Source of the DNA: an uncultured Candidatus Saccharibacteria bacterium
GTDB taxonomy: Bacteria; Patescibacteriota; Minisyncoccia; Phycocordibacterales; DATDWN01
Direction: 5' to 3'
DNA length: 64,000 nucleotides
NCBI GenBank assembly: GCA_964576615.1
Contig: CAZNUU010000004.1
Coordinates: 4,663-68,662 of the forward strand
Each line of letters begins with the position of its first letter. The first letter of the stretch is position 1. This document shows positions 1,817 through 55,082 of this stretch, piece after piece. Both the position numbers and the translations under genes were made by a program. A model generated the notes under the pieces. The model was not told the DNA's origin, did no database searches, and saw nothing but the letters and a program-made list of their open reading frames with translations.

Positions 1817-4174
1817 GTGACCAAGTCTAAAGACAAAAAGACACTAGTCCTCCTCGATGTGCACGCCATAATTCATCGAGCTTATCATGCTCTGCCCGAG
1901 TTCCAATCCTCTCAGGGCGAGCCAACGGGAGCTCTCTATGGTCTTTGCACCATGCTCATCAAGTTGGTTAAGGATTTAAAACCGGACTATCTTATTGCTT
2001 GCTACGATTTACCGGGTGAGACTGTTAGGCACAAAGTTTATAAAGAATATAAAGGCACTAGAAAAGAGATTGATGATGCACTAATAACTCAGCTTGAAAA
2101 ATCAAAAGATGTTTTCAAGGCCCTAAATATTCCGATGTATTCTCATCCAGGTTTTGAGGCCGATGACATGCTCGGCACAATTACTCAGGCTGTTTCCAAA
2201 GATAAAAACATTGATGTAGTCATTGCTTCGGGAGATATGGATACGATGCAGCTCATATCTGGTGAGAAGGTAAGAGTTTATACTTTGCGCAAGGGAATAA
2301 AGGATACTGTCATTTATGACGAAAAAGGAATCATCGAGAGGTTTAAATTTCCACCCAAGTACTTTCCTGATTACAAAGGTTTACGTGGGGATCCATCGGA
2401 TAACATAATCGGCATAGCTGGCATTGGCGAAAAAACAGCCGAGGAACTCATCGTAAAGTTTGGTTCTATTGAAGATATTTATAAAAGACTAAGGAAAGGT
2501 GAGAAAGATTTTATTAAGGCAGGTATAAAACCAAGAATCATCGAGCTTTTAAAACAAGGTGAAGAAGAAGCCTTGTTTTCTAAGATGCTCGCAACTATTA
2601 GGCGAGATGCACCGATTAAATTTAAATTACCTGAAAAACCTTGGGAGGAAGATGTAGATATTCAAAAGGTTGAAAAGCTATTTGTGGAATTGGAGTTTAG
2701 AACACTGGCGACAAAAGTAGCCGAAGTTTTATCAATCGAAGTTGAAAAAAAGGAAGAAAAAGAAGAAAATCCGGATGAAGCTTATGATACTGCTCTCATG
2801 CTCTGGGTAGTTGATTCTAGTAAAACTACGCCAACTTTAGAGGATGCACTTTCTTATACCAGGACAAATACTCTATCTGATGCCAGAAAAGCCCTAGAGA
2901 AAATTATTAAAGACCAGGATCTCTCATTTGTTTTAGATAAGATCGAACGCCCTCTTATTCCGATAATAAAAGAGATGAAAGAAGTAGGCATAAAAATTGA
3001 TGCTGATTTTCTGGACGATTTATCCAAAAAATATCATAGAGAACTAAATAGTCTTGAAAAAAAAATCTGGAAAATAACAGGTGAAGAATTTAATATCGCT
3101 TCCCCAAAACAGTTGGGCGAGATGCTCTTTGTCAAAATGGGTATTAAAACAAAGGGTCAAAAAAAGACAGCCACTGGTGGATTTTCAACCAAGGAATCAG
3201 AATTGGAAAAACTAAAAGACGAGTATCCTATCGCCTCACTTGTACTAGATTATCGGGAATTGGCAAAGCTTTTGGGTACTTATATCGATACTATCCCAAA
3301 ACTTTTAGATAAAAATGAGAGGCTTCACCCAGAATTTTTGCAAGCCGGATCTGCTACAGGCAGAATGGCTAGCCAAAATCCGGGAGTTCAAAATATTCCG
3401 ATTAAAACAGAATTAGGCAGGGAAATTCGCAAGGCTTTTATTGCGGAGAAGGGTTACAAGATTGTTTCATTTGATTACTCCCAAATTGAACTTCGGATCG
3501 CCGCATTTCTGTCCGGTGATAAGAAATTAATTGAGATTTTCAAGAAAGGCGAAGATGTTCATACGGCTGTGGCGTGCGAAGTTTTTGGGGTTAATCCGGA
3601 TGAGGTAACCAAGGCCATGAGATCTCAAGCTAAAGTTATAAACTTTGGTGTCATGTATGGTATGGGGGTAACGGCACTGCAGAAAAATATTGGTACAAAT
3701 AGAGAAGAAGCGCAGAAGTTTTTAAATGAGTATTTCAAAAAATTCTCTGGTTTAGCGGAATATTTAGAGAAAATTAAAAGGCAGACAAGTCAAAAAGGTT
3801 ATACCGAAACGTTTTATGGCAGAAGAAGATATTTTCCAGAAATTCACTCCAGACTCCCATTTATGAAAGCCGCTGCAGAGAGAATGGCAGTTAACGCGCC
3901 TATTCAAGGTACAGAGGCAGACATAATCAAACTGGCCATGATTGAGATCGATAAGGTCCTAGCTTTCAAAAAAATAAAAAAAGATGTGAGACTTTTGCTT
4001 CAAGTTCACGATGAACTTGTCTACGAGATTAAGGTTGATCTGGTCGAAAAAATTGCACCGGAAATAAGGAATATAATGGAAAATGTCCTGCCGCCTGGTA
4101 AGGCTTCTGGAGTAGTCATGGCGGCTGAAGCCAATGCGGGGGATAATTGGGGTGAGTTGAAGAAGTTGCTATAA
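1817..4174 (+). CDS. polA: DNA polymerase I. It has a 5' nuclease domain and a family A polymerase domain, and is short (785 aa).
   Basis: The 5' nuclease N-terminus reads LLDVHAIIHRAYHAL. The polymerase motifs DYSQIELRIAAFLSGD and QVHDELV are present. It has a probable GTG start. Confidence 0.9.
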   Translation: MTKSKDKKTLVLLDVHAIIHRAYHALPEFQSSQGEPTGALYGLCTMLIKLVKDLKPDYLIACYDLPGETVRHKVYKEYKGTRKEIDDALITQLEKSKDVFKALNIPMYSHPGFEADDMLGTITQAVSKDKNIDVVIASGDMDTMQLISGEKVRVYTLRKGIKDTVIYDEKGIIERFKFPPKYFPDYKGLRGDPSDNIIGIAGIGEKTAEELIVKFGSIEDIYKRLRKGEKDFIKAGIKPRIIELLKQGEEEALFSKMLATIRRDAPIKFKLPEKPWEEDVDIQKVEKLFVELEFRTLATKVAEVLSIEVEKKEEKEENPDEAYDTALMLWVVDSSKTTPTLEDALSYTRTNTLSDARKALEKIIKDQDLSFVLDKIERPLIPIIKEMKEVGIKIDADFLDDLSKKYHRELNSLEKKIWKITGEEFNIASPKQLGEMLFVKMGIKTKGQKKTATGGFSTKESELEKLKDEYPIASLVLDYRELAKLLGTYIDTIPKLLDKNERLHPEFLQAGSATGRMASQNPGVQNIPIKTELGREIRKAFIAEKGYKIVSFDYSQIELRIAAFLSGDKKLIEIFKKGEDVHTAVACEVFGVNPDEVTKAMRSQAKVINFGVMYGMGVTALQKNIGTNREEAQKFLNEYFKKFSGLAEYLEKIKRQTSQKGYTETFYGRRRYFPEIHSRLPFMKAAAERMAVNAPIQGTEADIIKLAMIEIDKVLAFKKIKKDVRLLLQVHDELVYEIKVDLVEKIAPEIRNIMENVLPPGKASGVVMAAEANAGDNWGELKKLL

Positions 4175-4289
4175 TTCAGAGAGCAAAAACAAATTTTCTG
4201 GAGCACGGATATTTTCTTACTGGAAAATTCCTCGTGCTCGCGCCGTCGCGCTCCCAAGTCTCCAGAAAACTTATTTTTGCTCTCTGAAT
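4174..4289 (+). repeat. Copy 1 of the conserved-core element. A ~56-nt core is flanked by a 30-bp inverted repeat with 2 mismatches, and the element fills the entire polA-holA intergenic space.
   Basis: The left inverted repeat attcagagagcaaaaacaaattttctggag lies at 4174-4203. The core cacggatattttcttactggaaaattcctcgtgctcgcgccgtcgcgctcccaagt follows. The right inverted repeat ctccagaaaacttatttttgctctctgaat lies at 4260-4289. The next ATG is at 4290. Confidence 0.7.
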
Positions 4290-5012
4290 ATGCTTTATTT
4301 AATTTTCGGTACAGATACAGAAAAGTCTCGCAGAAAGCTCCATGAGCTTTTAGATTCGGCGCAGAAAAAAAGACCAGGCTCGGAGCTATTTAGGATGAAT
4401 ACAGAAAGTTGGGTCGAGGGCAGGTTTGATGAGCTAGTTGTCTCCCAGGGTTTGTTTGAACAGAAATACACTGTTGTTTTGGACAATTTATTTGAAAGAA
4501 AAGAAGTAAAGGATTATGTGTTGGATAGGATTAAGGAAGTGGCAGAATCAAAACAAGTATTCCTCATGCTGGAAAGCAAAATTGATGCGGCTACTCTAAC
4601 TAAAATAAAAAAGGTTGCAAAACAGGTCCAGGAATTTGAAAAAAAAGATGAAGATAAGTTTAGAAAACCAACTGGAAGTATATTTTCGATTGCAGATGGT
4701 TTAGTAAGTAAAGACAAGAAAAAACTTTGGACAAAATTTATTGATTTTATTTACAAAGGTACAGCTCCAGAGGAGATCCATGGAATTTTTTTCTGGCAAG
4801 TAAAAAATATGATTATCTCTCTTAAATCCAGTACTTTAGCAGAAACTGGTCTTTCTCCCTTTGTTTATAAAAATGCCTTAAACGGTTCAAAAAATTATAA
4901 AATAGAAGAACTCCAAAACATGTCTTCCGATTTGGTACAAATGACCCACAGAGTTCGTCAGGGTGAAGGGGATTTGGAAATTATGCTAGAGAAGTGGATA
5001 CTTTCACTTTAG
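4290..5012 (+). CDS. holA: Putative DNA polymerase III delta subunit (HolA-like).
   Basis: The N-terminus MLYLIFGTDTEKSRRKL resembles the HolA N-terminal LYLLYGE motif. Its position after polA fits. It is short (240 aa). Confidence 0.4.
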   Translation: MLYLIFGTDTEKSRRKLHELLDSAQKKRPGSELFRMNTESWVEGRFDELVVSQGLFEQKYTVVLDNLFERKEVKDYVLDRIKEVAESKQVFLMLESKIDAATLTKIKKVAKQVQEFEKKDEDKFRKPTGSIFSIADGLVSKDKKKLWTKFIDFIYKGTAPEEIHGIFFWQVKNMIISLKSSTLAETGLSPFVYKNALNGSKNYKIEELQNMSSDLVQMTHRVRQGEGDLEIMLEKWILSL

Positions 5013-5279: not shown

Positions 5280-5467
5280 TTGATTTTTAGCCTTTTTTCT
5301 TGTATATTTTTCGAGTAGCTAAAGTAATCATGGTCAGGGATATTCTGTTCGCCGACGCGAACAGAATTCCACGACCCTGCCTCACTTGTTTTTTCTACTG
5401 AAAAAACATAGTTCCGGCTCGCATAAGTCTTTGAGAAATCAAAGCAGTTTGATTACTCAAAGCTTAT

Positions 5468-5540
5468 GCGCCCATAACTCAGCTGGTAGAGTAGCTCCCT
5501 TTTAAGGAGAAAGTCGCAGGTCCGATTCCTGCTGGGCGCA
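5468..5540 (+). tRNA. tRNA-Lys, anticodon UUU.
   Basis: The cloverleaf has the acceptor stem GCGCCCA/TGGGCGC and the anticodon loop CTTTTAA. The T-arm is GCAGG-TCCGATT-CCTGC. No CCA is encoded. Confidence 0.8.
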
Positions 5541-5575: not shown

Positions 5576-5679
5576 CGTACGTGTGCGAGACGGAGCGCGT
5601 CGTCTGCTCAGGCAGACCCACAAGCGAGTCCGGGTCGGGAAAGTTTTTAGTAAAAAACTATTCCTGACCACATGACTTT

Positions 5680-6378
5680 TTGATTCTATTTGATATAGTT
5701 TTGCTACAAATGAATCTAGAAGAATTTAAAAAGCAGTATGTTATTGGCGAGCTTGGTATAAGCAAGTCTTATGGAAAGATAATGACTGTTATAGATTTTG
5801 GGAATGTTAATTATTGGTTTAATGAGGATAGGCAAGATTCCGAGAATAAGCTTCTGAAAGACGATGAAAAATTTAGGATAAAATTACCAGCCCTTTATGA
5901 CTTTATATCTCTGTTTTCTGACCATGTGCGTTTTTATTATGGTCATGATCCTTCTAGACATGAATCTATTGGCTTTCTTTCAGCAACAAGATCTATATTT
6001 GGTAAAAAAGTATTTACAAAACCAATCCAAAAAGTCAGACATCATCTTTCGCCTGAAGAAATATTTTCAAATAAAAGGGACACATTTTCTGATGGTGAGG
6101 GTGTTTATGTGCATGTTCCAAAATGTAATTTTGATGTAGAAATATCAGTGGACTCGATGCGTCTTTTAGATCAATATGACACATTAGCCTTATTCTCTAG
6201 TGATGCTGATTTTATTAGTTTAATTCGCTTTTTAAAAGGAAAAGGTAAGAAAATTATTTTATTTAAGGGAGGGTTTATTTCTTCTGATTTAAGAAAAGGA
6301 GTTGATAAGATAATAAATGCTCAAAATATTAAGAGACACATTGCTGAGGTCGTAAAAAAGCAAAAACCTGGCATTTAG
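5680..6378 (+). CDS. NYN / LabA-like domain protein.
   Basis: The motif VIDFGNVNYW and the C-terminal LFSSDADFISLIRFLKGKGKKIILF are typical of NYN/LabA proteins (PF01936-like). The true start may be a downstream Met. Confidence 0.55.
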   Translation: MILFDIVLLQMNLEEFKKQYVIGELGISKSYGKIMTVIDFGNVNYWFNEDRQDSENKLLKDDEKFRIKLPALYDFISLFSDHVRFYYGHDPSRHESIGFLSATRSIFGKKVFTKPIQKVRHHLSPEEIFSNKRDTFSDGEGVYVHVPKCNFDVEISVDSMRLLDQYDTLALFSSDADFISLIRFLKGKGKKIILFKGGFISSDLRKGVDKIINAQNIKRHIAEVVKKQKPGI

Positions 6379-6509: not shown

Positions 6510-6564
6510 AACTTGTGGGGAAATTAAAATGGCTGTTACAGCCATTTTAATTTCCCCACAAGTT
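6510..6564. repeat. Perfect 26-bp palindrome with a 3-nt spacer. It spans the predicted ATG at 6529.
   Basis: acttgtggggaaattaaaatggctg-tta-cagccattttaatttccccacaagt. Confidence 0.8.
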
Positions 6565-8793: not shown

Positions 8794-8816
8794 GAGTTAA
8801 TTTTATAACAGAATTT

Positions 8817-8916
8817 AACAAATTACATTATTTTGGAGACTTGCGAGCACGACGGCGCGAGCACGAGGAATTTTCTAGCAAGAAAATATCCGTGCTCCAA
8901 AATAATGTAATTTGTT
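8817..8916 (-). repeat. Copy 2 of the conserved-core element, in reverse orientation. It is flanked by a perfect 22-bp inverted repeat.
   Basis: aacaaattacattattttggag lies at 8817-8838 and ctccaaaataatgtaatttgtt at 8895-8916. Between them is the reverse complement of cacggatattttcttgctagaaaattcctcgtgctcgcgccgtcgtgctcgcaagt. Confidence 0.7.
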
Positions 8917-8920
8917 ATTG

Positions 8921-19717: not shown

Positions 19718-19746
19718 AATAATTCCCTTGAAGGGAATTTTTCGTA
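19718..19746 (+). terminator. Hairpin and T-run after tRNA-Arg. It is homologous to the hairpin after tRNA-Lys.
   Basis: ataattccct-tgaa-gggaattttt. Confidence 0.55.
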
Positions 19747-19820
19747 CTTGTGTGAGGCAGGCTGAGGGGCCGAGCCGGGGTCGCGGAAAATTTCAGGAGA
19801 AATTTATCTGTGACCAATAT

Positions 19821-20321
19821 TTATCCTCTTGAATCCGCACTTGGTCCGTAAATTGATGGCACTTTACCGCCCATTGGCCTAAGGTGTGTTGAAAGTTGGC
19901 CGCGGTGATGGACGAGGTCGAGTAAAAATCCCCAAACAATTTTTGCTTTGGTGTCTTCCCAGTCTGCCTTGCCGTTTGTAAGAAGGCTTACTTTCTTTTG
20001 CCAATCATCCTCTGACATTTTTGCTACCAGGCCTTCTACTGTTTTCATGTTATTAATAAAGACGTTTGCTATTTCTTCTGCCTTTTCCCATTTTGGCTCT
20101 GGCCATTTAACAAAATCAACTTCTCTACCTTCCACAATTGCAACCAACATATCGGATTCAACCCCAAACGTGTGTTTCATCAGCTCCAGAGTTGTTCTCG
20201 ATCTCTCATCATGTTTGTAGGAGTGTTTAGAATCTGGAGTTTCTTCCACCGCCTTAAAAACTCTTTCAAACCTAGGCATCTCGTCTTTTAATGTTTCTAA
20301 AAAAAATTGTTTGTCGGACAT
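19821..20321 (-). CDS. DinB/YfiT-like (DinB_2) metal-dependent hydrolase family protein.
   Basis: It has an HHRGQ motif. 166 aa. Confidence 0.55.
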   Translation of the reverse strand: MSDKQFFLETLKDEMPRFERVFKAVEETPDSKHSYKHDERSRTTLELMKHTFGVESDMLVAIVEGREVDFVKWPEPKWEKAEEIANVFINNMKTVEGLVAKMSEDDWQKKVSLLTNGKADWEDTKAKIVWGFLLDLVHHRGQLSTHLRPMGGKVPSIYGPSADSRG

Positions 20322-23140: not shown

Positions 23141-23482
23141 ATGAAGTCTCATCATAATTTATACGCTGCTATTGTTTTAGGTATTGTTGCGGGACTTTTG
23201 AGCACTTACCCTTTCCTTCTCGGTCCTTACGAAAGTTTCTTTTTGTGGGGAATGGTTGCTCTCGGTCTTGGGTTTTTTGCACACGGTAATAAACAAGCTA
23301 TGTGGAGTGGTGCTTACTACGGTTTCTTCTTGTCTTTATCTTTTCTTTATTCAAGATTTGGTGGTGGGAGTGAGAAGTTTTTGACTTATAGTGTTTTTGT
23401 TCTGGGTATGAGTGTCCTGGGAATTGTAGTTGGGGTCTTCACTTCTCTTGTGGGTTCAAAGCTAAAAGGTCTCAAACAGTAG
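23141..23482 (+). CDS. Hypothetical membrane protein.
   Basis: A hydrophobic 113-aa ORF. Confidence 0.45.
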   Translation: MKSHHNLYAAIVLGIVAGLLSTYPFLLGPYESFFLWGMVALGLGFFAHGNKQAMWSGAYYGFFLSLSFLYSRFGGGSEKFLTYSVFVLGMSVLGIVVGVFTSLVGSKLKGLKQ

Positions 23483-23494
23483 CTCAAAATAGAA

Positions 23495-23525
23495 GGAGCC
23501 GCACCCTCTGGTGCGGCTCCGTTTT
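23495..23525. terminator. Bidirectional GC-rich hairpin terminator. Its stem sequence is shared with the hairpin at 31965-31996.
   Basis: ggagccgcacc-ctctg-gtgcggctcc. It is flanked by T-rich runs on both strands. Confidence 0.6.
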
Positions 23526-23540
23526 GTCTGTCTTGAAGAT

Positions 23541-23888
23541 CTAGGCGCTCGGCTCCGGCTGGTCGGATGACCAGTTCACGTCGGTGCCGTCGGGCTGCCG
23601 GAATGCCGTCACACCTCGGATCGACCTGCACTTGGCCTCGAAATCGAAGCCAAGCTTGTCCTTGGCATAGGCTCGCATTTCTGGCCCCACACCCCCCTCG
23701 ACTTTCAGGCCGTGAGCCGCCTGAAAATCGGCGTTCCGTTTCGAGCCGGTTTCTCCGAACTCACCATCGACAAGGATTCCTTCGCCGAAGCCTCGCTCGA
23801 TCAAAAACTCAAGCCAGGGGTCGACGTGCGGCCCCTTCGAACCCACTTCCATGTATGGCGGTGGGGTAAAGCCATTAATGACAGCCAT
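23541..23888 (-). CDS. GC-rich small protein with a peptidoglycan-binding (PG_binding_1-like) domain (cassette D).
   Basis: A 115-aa protein from the ATG at complement 23886-23888, with AGGAGGT 4 nt upstream. The C-terminal half, ADFQAAHGLKVEGGVGPEMRAYA, resembles a PG-binding domain. The promoter TTGACT-N16-TAATAT lies at 23903-23933 on the minus strand. Confidence 0.55.
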   Translation of the reverse strand: MAVINGFTPPPYMEVGSKGPHVDPWLEFLIERGFGEGILVDGEFGETGSKRNADFQAAHGLKVEGGVGPEMRAYAKDKLGFDFEAKCRSIRGVTAFRQPDGTDVNWSSDQPEPSA

Positions 23889-23953
23889 CGCTACCTCCTG
23901 CGAGCATATTACTTGGGGATGCAATAAAGTCAAATAGATATATAATATTTCTC

Positions 23954-24481
23954 ATGTCAAAAGAATACTCGGTGCATCTTGAAACAAAAAAATATCAAAC
24001 TAAATACAGAACTGAATTTATTACAATCACAAAAGATGTAGAACACGCTATAAAAAGTTCTGGTATAAAAACTGGTACAGTTTTAATTCAAACTTATCAT
24101 ACTACTTGTGGTATTTGGGTAAACGAGGATGAAAAAAATTTAATAGGTCCAAGCGAAGTTTTAGGATACACCTCGGACTTGCGAAAAGTTTTAGATAGGT
24201 TTGCCGATCCCATGCATGACTATGGCCACAATGATGTTAACCATGCCCAAAACCCAAAAGGCAAACGGGATACTCATCTCTGTGAGCCAGATGAAAATGG
24301 GGTAATAAATGAATGTATAAATGGTCATGCTCATGCGCAAGCTCTGATGATCCATCCATCAATTTCTCTTATTGTAGAAGGCGGCAAGATCTTAAAAGGC
24401 AGATGGCAGGAAGTTATGTTAGTTGAGCTGGATCATGATAGGGAAAGGCAGGTGTCATTTCTGGTTAGTGGTATTAAGTAG
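23954..24481 (+). CDS. YjbQ/UPF0047 family protein.
   Basis: The motif TGTVLIQTYHTTCGIWVNEDE is present. The promoter TATAAT at 23940-23945 is very close to the ATG, so the transcript may be leaderless. Confidence 0.65.
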   Translation: MSKEYSVHLETKKYQTKYRTEFITITKDVEHAIKSSGIKTGTVLIQTYHTTCGIWVNEDEKNLIGPSEVLGYTSDLRKVLDRFADPMHDYGHNDVNHAQNPKGKRDTHLCEPDENGVINECINGHAHAQALMIHPSISLIVEGGKILKGRWQEVMLVELDHDRERQVSFLVSGIK

Positions 24482-24672
24482 CATAAATTCTCTTTCTCAT
24501 CATATTTCTCAGAGAGCACGGATATTTTCTTGCTGAAAATCTTCTTACAGAAGCTGTACACCTTTCGCTACTACGTGCTCAAGGTCTTGCGAAGCTTCCC
24601 TTCTCACCTCGTGATTGCGAAAGTGCGCTCCCAAGGCTCTCTTCGAAACATGATTCAACAAGATTTTATGCT
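24478..24672 (+). repeat. Copy 3 of the conserved-core element. It is an expanded variant with a ~100-nt internal insertion, flanked by an imperfect ~37-bp inverted repeat.
   Basis: The start of the core gagcacggatattttcttgctgaaaat lies at 24514. The end of the core gtgcgctcccaagg lies at about 24624-24637. The flanks agcataaattctctttctcatcatatttctcagagag and ctctcttcgaaacatgattcaacaagattttatgct are complementary at about 27 of 37 positions. Confidence 0.55.
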
Positions 24673-24687
24673 AAAATTACCATCATA

Positions 24688-25560
24688 ATGGAAAATGTTC
24701 TTGTTACAGAAAAATCTTCCGATTACGAACTACTAGATAGTGGGGATGAAGAAAAATTAGAAAGATACGGCAGTGTAATTTTATCCCGGCCCGATCCCCA
24801 AGCTATTTGGAAAAAAAATCTTGTCCCAGAGAGATGGCAGGAGGCTAGAGCAATATTTAACAGGAATGGTGCGTCTGGTAAGTGGAAAATAGAAAGAGAA
24901 ACTCCTGATCCTTGGCGGATTCACCTAAATGGTCTCACTTTTAATTTAAAACTTAATCCCTCAAAACATGTTGGTGTTTTTCCAGAACAATCTGCGCATT
25001 GGAAATGGTTGGAAGAGAAAATAAAAAAAGATTTTTCGGGACAAAAACTAAATATCCTGAATCTTTTTGGTCACACTGGTGGAGCATCACTTGCCTGTGC
25101 TCGAGCTGGGGCCAAAGTCACTCACGTTGATAGCTCCAAATTTGTGGTTGATTTTGCCCACAAGAATTTAATTGATTCGGGACTTTATGATAAACCGGTC
25201 AGGTTTATTGTGGATGACTGTCGAAAGTTTGTGGAAAGAGAGATACGGCGCAAGAGCAAGTATGATGTTATTATCCTCGATCCTCCCGTTTATGGTAAAG
25301 GTAAGAAAGGTGAGATCTGGAAAATAGAAAAAGATTTACCAGATTTTGTCCTGAGACTAAAGGGGATTCTTTCAGCAAAGCCAACTGCAATTGTTTTAAA
25401 CGGTTATTCTTCTTCGTATTCAAATATTACCTATGCCCAGATTCTTTCTCCACTAGTCTCGGATCTTGGTGGGGAAGTTTCCTCTGGAGAGCTGGGGATT
25501 AGGGAATCCAGTAGCTCACGCATTCTACCATCGGGTATTTTTGCTCGCTGGGAAAAATAA
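24688..25560 (+). CDS. Class I SAM-dependent RNA methyltransferase (RlmI/RlmK-like catalytic domain).
   Basis: The motifs LNLFGHTGGASLACARAGA, VTHVDSS and VIILDPP are present. Confidence 0.6.
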   Translation: MENVLVTEKSSDYELLDSGDEEKLERYGSVILSRPDPQAIWKKNLVPERWQEARAIFNRNGASGKWKIERETPDPWRIHLNGLTFNLKLNPSKHVGVFPEQSAHWKWLEEKIKKDFSGQKLNILNLFGHTGGASLACARAGAKVTHVDSSKFVVDFAHKNLIDSGLYDKPVRFIVDDCRKFVEREIRRKSKYDVIILDPPVYGKGKKGEIWKIEKDLPDFVLRLKGILSAKPTAIVLNGYSSSYSNITYAQILSPLVSDLGGEVSSGELGIRESSSSRILPSGIFARWEK

Positions 25561-51354: not shown

Positions 51355-51571
51355 AAAATTAAGGAGTGAAACGACTATAATTTACTTAACCCAGCCCCAC
51401 TTTTGGTAAAAAATGAAACAAAATATAAAACAAACAAATAGTGAAAAAATCTCTAGCGACGCGCGAAGGAATACTTCGGCCCTATTCGGGCCAGCGTCGA
51501 GGAATAGTTTACTAGCAAAAGTGGGGCTGGGTGAAGATTTTTATAATCGCTTCGCTCATTAAAAATCAATC
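51355..51571 (+). promoter_or_regulatory. Structured leader element, copy 2. It has the same 5' and 3' modules as 28245-28422, and a possible 49-codon uORF at 51413-51562. It ends 9 nt upstream of the ssb ATG.
   Basis: The 5' module aaaattaaggagtgaaacgactataatttacttaaccca lies at 51355-51393. The covarying arms cccagccccactttt and aaaagtggggctggg pair. The 3' module agatttttataatcgcttcgctcattaaaaatcaatc follows. Confidence 0.55.
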
Positions 51572-53591: not shown

Positions 53592-53856
53592 CCGGTCAGG
53601 CAGAAGCTTGCAAAGCGAGTTTCATAGCTTGGCCGGTTTTCTGCATTTAAATACTTGAGTGAAAATACTCTTTTATAAAACATTGCACAGGAGCTTAGAA
53701 AATAAAAGCAAATTAGAAAGCTGAAGGCATTGTTTGAGCGTAGCGAGTTTGCCGAGAAGCTCAGTCTAATTTGCGCATTATTTTCTTGAGCGACGAGCAT
53801 GGTAAAACTTCAGTAGAAGTTTATACGCGTTTTGCAAAAGAGTATTTGAACGACTA

Positions 53857-54972
53857 TTAGCCCTCGGCTTCCATCCCACCAGTACCTGGAACCATTGATC
53901 CACCGTTTTTCTTTAATCCAGCACGGATTTCTTTTAATATTGAGTCAGCAACTTTTTTATTTTCTTTATCTTTCAAAAATTGTCGTGTAGCATCGTAACC
54001 GCGGCCAAGTTTAACTTCACCAAACGAGTAGCTTGTGCCAGTTTTAGAAATTATGCCCATTTTCTCACCTAGGGCAATAAGTTCACCCTCACGCGAAATT
54101 CCTTCGTTATACATGAGGTCAAACTCTGTTTGTTTAAATGGTGCTGCCACTTTGTTTTTAACAACTTTAACTCTTATGCGTCCACCCATGACTTCTTCAC
54201 CTTTTTTTATTTGGGCAATTCGGCGGATATCTAATCGAACAGATGTGTAAAATTTGAGAGCTTTTCCGCCTGGAGTTGTCTCCGGATTACCAAACATTAC
54301 TCCTATCTGCATCCTGATCTGATTGAGGAAAATAACTATTGTTTTAGACTTGGCTACGATGGCGGTTAATTTGCGTAGAGCTTGAGACATTAGTCTGGCC
54401 TGCTTACCAACATGATGAGCTCCCATATCTCCCTCGATTTCATCTTTTGGTGTCAGAGCCGCAACAGAGTCAACAACAATTACATCGATTTTCCCGGAGC
54501 GAACAAGTGAATCCACGATTTCCAGGGCTTGTTCGCCATTATCCGGTTGAGAAATAAGTAAGTGATCTATATTTACACCGATTCTCTTGGCATATTCTGG
54601 ATCCATAGCATGTTCTGCGTCTATGAAGGCACAAATACCATCTTTTTTTTGAGCCTCGGCTATTACGTGAAGTGAAAGTGTTGTTTTACCAGATGATTCC
54701 GGCCCAAAAATCTCAATTATCCTCCCACGTGGCAGACCACCAACTCCAAGTGCCGCATCCAGACCAATTGACCCAGTTGATACTGCGTTTATATCGACAT
54801 GTGGCTTTTCGCCGAGCATCATGATGGAGTCATCGCCAAATTTTGTTTTTATTTCGCGAAGGGTATTATCAATGCTCACTTTTTCACCTCGACTAGGCAT
54901 TTCCCCGCCTGCGCGGGCAGTTTTTTCTGATTTTTGTTTTGATTTCATTTTTTTAGGATTTCGTTGAGCCAT
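53857..54972 (-). CDS. recA: Recombinase A.
   Basis: The Walker A motif [13 protein letters not shown] is present. [36 protein letters not shown] is present. The start was set at MAQRN (complement 54970-54972). The longer ORF would run through the repeat element. Confidence 0.9.
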
Positions 54973-55060
54973 AATTTTTCTGGCGCCTTGGGAGCGCGAC
55001 GGCGCGAGCACGAGGAATTTTCTAGCAAGAAAATATCCGTGCGCAAGAAAAATTATGGGG
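54969..55060 (-). repeat. Copy 4 of the conserved-core element, in reverse orientation. It is flanked by an 18-bp inverted repeat with 1 mismatch. The recA start codon lies inside the element end.
   Basis: ccataatttttctggcgc lies at 54969-54986 and gcgcaagaaaaattatgg at 55043-55060. The core is the reverse complement of acggatattttcttgctagaaaattcctcgtgctcgcgccgtcgcgctcccaag. Confidence 0.7.
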
Positions 55061-55082
55061 AGAAAGAAATCCGATTAAACTT

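Follow-up and report, generated by a model that had tools for sequence, protein, structure and literature searches.

Does the enlarged third copy of a palindromic repeat, lying between yjbQ and a methyltransferase gene, belong to the same family as its three shorter neighbours, and if so did it grow from within or receive its extra sequence from elsewhere? The 64,000-nucleotide stretch of DNA analysed here (the window) carries four such copies, and a first-pass annotation of the sequence had described the third as an expanded variant of a common core. Our analysis shows that the observation is real and not due to chance, since the motif recurs, the flanks pair, and all four copies fold far better than shuffled sequences (z from -4.75 to -9.3). 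The 27-mer GAGCACGGATATTTTCTTGCTGAAAAT, reported as the 5' motif of copy 3, is present at 24514-24540 and, with up to three mismatches, at two more sites in the window (4201 and 8871; none expected by chance), and the 16-mer GCACGGATATTTTCTT is found exactly at 4203(+), 8880(-), 24516(+) and 55027(-). The second half of the proposal, that the family is "evolving by internal expansion", is not supported: similarity between the extra block and the core is not significant, and the block's homologue in another genome is itself an insertion/deletion difference (below).

Anatomy of copy 3 and its neighbours

The YjbQ/UPF0047 gene (yjbQ) occupies 23954-24481, with its TAG stop codon at 24479-24481, and the gene for a SAM-dependent methyltransferase occupies 24688-25560, with its ATG at 24688; copy 3 lies between that start and the yjbQ stop. 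The YjbQ protein of the window is most similar to proteins of Zambryskibacteria and Paceibacterota. Copy 3 (24479-24673, + strand) is a complete palindromic repeat unit, of a family whose size is about 112 nt, split by one 66-nt block. In the minimum free energy (MFE) fold its enclosing stem, P1, joins a 5' arm at 24479-24517 to a 3' arm at 24636-24673 through 28 pairs, all of them Watson-Crick; the yjbQ stop codon lies inside the 5' arm and pairs with CTA at 24671-24673. The 5' arm also contains an internal loop (CUUUCUC, 24492-24498) and a UC/UC tandem mismatch (24509-24510), and is homologous to the P1 arms of loci L104, L111, L015 and L097. The complementary flanks that had been noticed are thus borne out, with small corrections: the stem ends at 24673 and not 24672, and the right flank, given before as "gaattttatgc", actually reads ...caagattttatgctaaaatt.

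Inside P1, the two-base junction AC and the P2 hairpin (GGA-U-AUUUUCU UGCU GAAAAU) make up the 5' half of the core at 24518-24540 (+), which matches the covariance model of the family, R1. There follow the 66-nt insert (CTTCTTACAG...CCCTTCTCA, 24541-24606, +, bounds taken from local alignment to the core), which we call the B block, and then at 24607-24635 (+) the lower 3' strand of P2 (CC), the junction U and a diverged but complete P3 (CGUGAUUGCG AAAGUG CGCUCCCAAG). A spacer of 24674-24687 (+) separates the end of copy 3 from the methyltransferase ATG, and belongs to the 206-nt stretch missing at the empty sites described below. Local alignment to the standard core matches core positions 2-29 with 24514-24540 (27 of 28 identical) and positions 31-63 with 24607-24639 (CCTCGTGATTGCGAAAGTGCGCTCCCAAGGCTC; 27 of 33 identical), so what had been taken for the 3' end of the core, GTGCGCTCCCAAGG, is indeed present at 24623-24636 but is the tail of a complete, diverged P3, and the retained 3' part is 33 nt and not 14. 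The extra sequence, put earlier at ~100 nt or, as listed, 84 nt, is the single 66-nt block. In the other three window copies CCTCGTGCTCGCGCCGTCGCGCTC follows the 5' half; in copy 3 it is not contiguous with it. An earlier parse of ours, in which CGTGCTC at 24574-24580 was a P3 strand and copy 3 had two insertions, is rejected: the local alignment points to 24607-24639 instead, and in locus L108 CGTGCTC is part of the B block.

With the block set aside, 23 of the 27 scorable family base pairs are kept in copy 3 (9/11 in P1, 8/8 in P2 and 6/8 in P3), and the elements by which R1 defines the family, P1, the GCAC junction, P2 with its UGCU loop, and P3, are present in order. Copy 3 is therefore a true family member with an intact enclosing stem and an interrupted core, by the evidence of the local alignment and the kept pairs, and the idea that it shares just a ~25-nt motif with the others is excluded: its 3' half aligns, its helices are kept, and it lies immediately after a stop codon as other copies do. 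Run glocally on copy 3, R1 scores 15.6 bits over the 5' half only, because the block breaks the alignment. The block is placed at the P2/P3 junction, with the upper P2 stem on its 5' side and the closing CC of P2 on its 3' side, and forms a hairpin of its own (ACCUU-UCGCUACUACGUGCUC-AAGGU; -14.8 kcal/mol alone, z = -2.2). The whole region is predicted to fold at -59.3 kcal/mol (z = -4.75 versus shuffles), with P1, P2, the block hairpin and what is left of the P3 apex, hence with at least one branch beyond the standard three-way junction; enforcing both P2 and P3 yields a four-way junction, at a cost of 6.2 kcal/mol in stability relative to the MFE fold.

The other three window copies are of standard type. 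Copy 1 (4174-4289, +; 94.6 bits with R1, fold z = -9.0) lies at the 3' end of polA next to holA and has 30-nt arms that are 93% complementary; copy 2 (8816-8917, -; 99 bits, z = -9.3) lies downstream of fpg and has perfect 23-nt arms; and copy 4 (54956-55072, -; 96.9 bits) lies between a gene of 117 amino acids and recA. The first in-frame ATG of recA, a candidate start at 54972-54970 (-), is inside the P1 3' arm of copy 4; if it is the start, recA translation initiation may depend on opening of that stem. A divergent, enlarged sequence in the recA 3' UTR (53663-53847, -) has 19-nt inverted arms around 147 nt, an interior that opens with a P2-like hairpin (AUAAACUUC UACU GAAGUUUUA), a family-like core reading GCGUAUAAACUUC UACU GAAGUUUUACC AUGCUCGUCGCUCAAG, and a weak R1 match at 53777-53844 (E = 0.05); it is probably a second, older enlarged relative, although its membership is tentative.

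A family of branched palindromic repeats

One scan of species-representative genomes with the exact 24-base core pattern GCACGGATATTTTCTTNCTN{0,1}GAAAA returned 96 loci, with several copies in some assemblies. All are in Patescibacteria-type MAGs (Patescibacteria/Paceibacteria, including Zambryski-, Nomura-, Wildermuth- and Taylorbacteria and others) except one, a 1.7-kb contig labelled Flavobacterium. The standard unit has a median length of about 112 nt, with a P1 of 22 bp (median) and a core of about 57 nt, and in 59 of 86 copies GCAC and the 3' stem lie 57-58 nt apart. In a structure alignment of 76 distinct standard copies (A1), the consensus consists of the enclosing stem P1, a two-base junction, P2 (GGA-U-AUUUUCU UGCU AGAAAAU-UCC, with its UGCU loop and bulged U), one unpaired U and then P3 (CGUGC-UC-GCGC CGUC GCGC-UC-GCAAG, which contains one G.A mismatch and UC/UC mismatches in tandem). 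In these 76 copies 92.2% of cells are paired, versus 76.6% in shuffles, double-sided changes number 340 versus 105, all slid registers are at most 56% paired, and compensatory changes occur in nine P1 pairs and five P3 pairs; the core is a covariation-supported three-way junction. P2 seems invariant because the search pattern fixed it; distant members found through R1 do covary in P2 under the UGCU loop (AUUUCG/CGAAAU in L104, 48 bits; AAUUUCU/AGAAAUU in L097, 72 bits; CCCGCC/GGCGGG in L111). The arms of L104 and L111 are almost identical and their P2 stems are entirely different, a hint that arms and cores may be swapped as modules.

Interrupted cores are found in six of 88 scorable copies, at the P2/P3 junction in L032, L074 and copy 3, and at the P3 apex in L011, L038 and L082. 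By eye, the L032 and L074 inserts, which follow core position ~27-34, share their borders (GNGCGAC ... AGNAGUGCC) and have different hairpins; they look like an optional stem, unlike the B block.

Across the window no Rfam family is matched at its gathering threshold, and at E <= 10 the regions 24440-24720 and 4150-4310 give just chance-level matches to miRNAs and lncRNAs; L108 has no Rfam match. A search of the literature on the candidate phyla radiation and Parcubacteria found no description of such repeats. In type the repeats are small, palindromic and mobile, like RPEs, ERICs and MITEs, and they form a new family that is absent from Rfam. What sets it apart is its host phylum, its covariation-supported branched core, the way it invades essential genes in frame, and the nested module of 66 nt.

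Mobility, and the case for a selected RNA

The gene order yjbQ, methyltransferase, PAP2, SIMPL is kept in relatives whose YjbQ proteins are 84-87% identical to that of the window. At the empty sites L097, L098, L099, L101 and L106 yjbQ and the methyltransferase gene overlap or are 0-12 nt apart, versus 206 nt in the window, and because the whole 206 nt are missing there, both arms of copy 3 belong to the inserted DNA. The same junction holds a standard-size divergent family member in L104 and an unrelated 123-nt spacer in L100. Two contigs from the window's own strain end within the copy 3 element, as expected of a repeat, and MAG REEB237 contains three near-identical ~128-nt units at separate places, with similarity that ends sharply on both sides. 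Copies are more alike within genomes than between them, both in the P1 arms (54% versus 34% identity) and in the 3' half of the core (81% versus 63%).

Long open reading frames contain about 18 of the 101 copies, which are stop-free and in frame in either orientation; by direct reading of the sequence, the core is open in four of its six reading frames. Pfam domains flank the insert on both sides in SecA, UvrB (at two different sites), PheT and Fmt, and other in-gene hosts are RNase R-like, ComEC-like, Dus-like and UvrC-like proteins and a methyltransferase; alignment of the L072 methyltransferase with the window orthologue has a 35-residue gap exactly at the element. Units translated in three frames have no NCBIfam or Pfam match at E <= 10, and a peptide-profile search of the protein database for in-frame copies yielded two word-sharing candidates and no match. 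The outer ends of P1 form terminal inverted repeats, AAATCTC...GAGATTT, that are common to copy 3, L104, L111, L015 and L097. No target-site duplication is present at the ends of the REEB237 copies, nor at copy 3 when compared with the empty sites, and neither the core nor the B block was found in viral contigs. Insertion into a pre-existing terminator hairpin, or an inverted duplication of the target, was considered and rejected, because the empty sites have no hairpin or arm-like sequence and the in-gene inserts add both arms.

The family thus behaves as mobile DNA, and copy 3 is probably a non-autonomous palindromic mobile repeat, similar to MITEs or RPEs, that landed after the yjbQ stop codon and into which a second small module was later inserted. 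The element would have entered directly 3' of that stop codon, separating two genes that abut or overlap in relatives. The unit may move by way of a folded single-stranded intermediate, with a trans-acting enzyme recognising the structure of the core; such an intermediate would account for P1 and P3 covarying. Nested insertion, or recombination between elements, could have brought in the B block, at a junction that presumably tolerates it structurally. On the simplest reading copy 3 would be co-transcribed as a long hairpin in the yjbQ-methyltransferase message. Against this account stand the small number of B blocks known (two) and an indel polarity drawn from two lineages, the missing target-site duplication, the conserved centre with variable arms, which reverses the pattern of a classical MITE, and a preference for the sense orientation next to stop codons.

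The last of these belongs to the strongest competing explanation, that the family is primarily a host-selected, cis-acting 3' UTR RNA, which might for instance stabilise transcripts, be processed by RNase III or bind a protein, and of which copy 3 would be a functional variant with an optional extra stem. Of 74 intergenic copies 57 are sense and 17 antisense to the gene on their 5' side (p ~ 3e-6 by our own binomial estimate), and in 26 of 45 copies P1 starts at -4 to +17 nt relative to the stop codon of that gene. The strands of the four window copies (+, -, +, -) match the local gene strand, so the orientation bias is tied to transcription and not to the direction of replication. In L002, L030, L039, L052 and L053 the copy has a stop codon on one side and a separate canonical terminator on the other. 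In copy 3's own neighbourhood, 24300-24800, there are no promoter-like or terminator-like sites. The strong covariation in the core structure, the near-identical core over many Paceibacteria lineages, and the occupation of the same junctions in distant genomes (at recA in L033 and L027 as in the window, and at polA in L022 as in the window) would likewise be expected of such an RNA. By a rough estimate, however, chance alone would produce about this number of shared junctions, and their conservation is not distinguishable from chance in this sampling; the same is true of an association with DNA-repair genes (polA, fpg, recA), which we also considered.

A selected RNA also accords poorly with in-frame copies of both orientations within essential genes and with presence or absence that differs among close relatives. 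G-U cells are no more frequent than A-C cells (13 versus 24 in P1 and 9 versus 10 in P3, counts that by themselves are uninformative on which strand folds), and the antisense strand is predicted to be the more stable in 47 of 56 standard copies with RNA parameters (50 of 56 with DNA parameters). The antisense strand folds better because of the conserved CUCG/CUCG tandem pyrimidine mismatches, whose UC/UC becomes tandem G.A on that strand. We therefore regard host selection as an unlikely account of the family; it is partly compatible with mobility, since a mobile element could be co-opted.

Origin of the B block

The best local score of the B block against the core is 18.5, versus 15.0 +/- 2.8 for shuffled sequences, 10% of which equal it. 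Whether the inserted segment occurs as a repeat elsewhere has a divided answer: no other instance is present in the window or the 96 loci (partial matches in L033 and L038 are unconvincing), and there is a homologue in a different genome. A single metagenome scan with a 20-mer from the centre of the block returned four loci, of which L107, L109 and L110 were rejected as chance matches in GC-rich coding sequence. The fourth, L108, is on a contig of 40% GC and has the block in its greA-lysS spacer; with the one in copy 3 this makes two known instances. L108 positions 5452-5501 are 92% identical to the block over 50 nt, including 38 identical bases (GTACACCTTTCGCTACTACGTGCTCAAGGTCTTGCGAA), and the homology, bounded by CTTACAG and TTCTCAC, spans 5452-5520 and takes in nearly all of the 66 nt.

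No family-A core was found in the L108 element. It has a long stem with CUC/CUCAAC-type internal loops, built like copy 3, but its core is a single hairpin; the block stands at the 3' foot of a hairpin in both hosts. L115, which is from the same assembly project as L108, and L116 have GreA proteins that are 89% identical, and their greA-lysS spacers are 83% identical to that of L108 except for a gap of ~66 nt exactly at the block; with two lineages compared, this difference may be an insertion or a deletion. No duplication is evident at the borders of the block. The greA-lysS spacer itself differs by lineage, with a family-A relative that has a GC-rich P2 in L111/L113 (4460-4600), a single-hairpin "type C" element in L115/L116 (4460-4620), and type C plus the B block in L108 (5385-5610).

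Found in two different elements, and as an indel in one of them, the B block is a module that has moved or recombined at least once. On this comparison of sequences copy 3 is a nested or composite element and not the product of gradual internal expansion. A wider scheme can be drawn around the same facts, in which a Patescibacteria-specific superfamily would share a P1 framework with CUC/CUCAAC-type loops and have exchangeable cores (the three-way junction A, the single-hairpin C and the 66-nt module B), with structure-reading machinery acting on the folded single strand and some copies co-opted as 3'-UTR signals. We think it quite unlikely that matters are so ordered; if they were, the B block would be among the smallest independently moving modules known.

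Duplication or slippage of the element's own sequence, the mechanism implied by internal expansion, could be seen in the presence within the block of CGTGCTC and CTTGCGAAGC, which resemble P3 strands, in a 7-nt direct repeat (TTGCGAA at 24587-24593 and 24615-24621), and in the weak alignment of 24542-24584 to core positions 15-60 that gives the score of 18.5. That score is within easy reach of shuffled sequence, and the same block, CGTGCTC included, is present in L108 in the company of no family-A core, so an origin of this kind is very improbable. A self-cleaving ribozyme or intron-like RNA removed from transcripts, for which one could cite the long P1 that juxtaposes the flanks, the compact conserved three-way-junction core and the interruption of coding sequences, is highly improbable, as Rfam offers no match (hammerhead, twister, pistol, hatchet and HDV-like ribozymes included) even at E <= 10 on the short regions, and in-gene units are stop-free and in frame in both orientations, with the core open in most frames, which translation needs and excision would not.

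The non-autonomous mobile repeat that we prefer has parallels in several known systems. Rickettsia palindromic elements (RPEs) are found in intergenic regions and also in frame inside unrelated housekeeping genes, to which they add a peptide (PMC10969869); like the present family they are palindromes of 100-150 bp that have no transposase of their own. The two differ in host phylum and have no sequence relationship (the translated units have no NCBIfam or Pfam match), and the covariation-supported three-way-junction core and the strong sense preference just after stop codons are peculiar to the family described here. ERIC/IRU sequences are imperfect palindromes of ~127 bp in transcribed intergenic regions and occasionally within genes (PMC10969869). 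Those of enterobacteria resemble our units in size and in being intergenic with some intragenic copies, but are unrelated in sequence and taxon, and are conserved over their full length, in contrast to the variable arms and conserved centre of our units. Some ERIC copies are reportedly enlarged by extra sequence at fixed internal sites, which would parallel the two insertion hot spots seen here, the P2/P3 junction and the P3 apex. MITEs such as Correia/NEMIS and QMITE2 form co-transcribed hairpins that can be RNase III substrates, and QMITE2 is mostly in 3' UTRs (PMC10969869); classical bacterial MITEs share with this family small size, lack of autonomy, terminal inverted repeats, multiple copies and differences in presence among relatives, but here there is no target-site duplication and conservation is in the centre, not at the termini. 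REPs are 20-40 bp long with a GTAG or CGTC tag (PMC3733652). Like REP/REPIN sequences, which RAYT (Y1) transposases mobilise, our units are hairpin-forming extragenic repeats whose complementarity is kept by compensatory change, and both may move as folded single strands; this unit is longer and its core is branched.

Patescibacteria have tiny, compact genomes that are usually described as repeat-poor. The present family alters that picture: a conserved, structured repeat occupies their intergenic spacers, comes between paired genes that in relatives are adjoining or overlapping, and lengthens proteins such as SecA, UvrB and PheT by 35-45 residues, and is a source of both protein and operon variation. 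It also breaks MAG assemblies, as seen here, and is an annotation trap. Reading "expanded" copies as nested composites offers a way to spot further small modules.

Several other loci in the window deserve mention. A large intergenic palindrome at 51359-51562 (+), with 55-nt arms that are 78% complementary around 94 nt, has a different core and a distal CGCTTCGCTC motif as at the ends of other units. Two mutually similar loci of ~130 nt, at 5600-5681 (-) and 19729-19827 (-), abut the 3' ends of tRNA-Lys and tRNA-Arg, respectively, and match R1 with E = 2.8e-6 and 0.02; each has a P2-like hairpin with a covarying stem and a terminal AAUUCCC...GGGAAUU terminator-like hairpin. A perfect 27-bp palindrome with a 1-nt centre at 6510-6564 overlaps the start of an open reading frame (6529). 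Finally, just upstream of yjbQ, the region 23450-23900 is a GC-rich island (57-62% versus ~39% around it) containing a minus-strand open reading frame of 130 amino acids (23541-23933) that has no Pfam match; a gene of similar size is present there in relatives.
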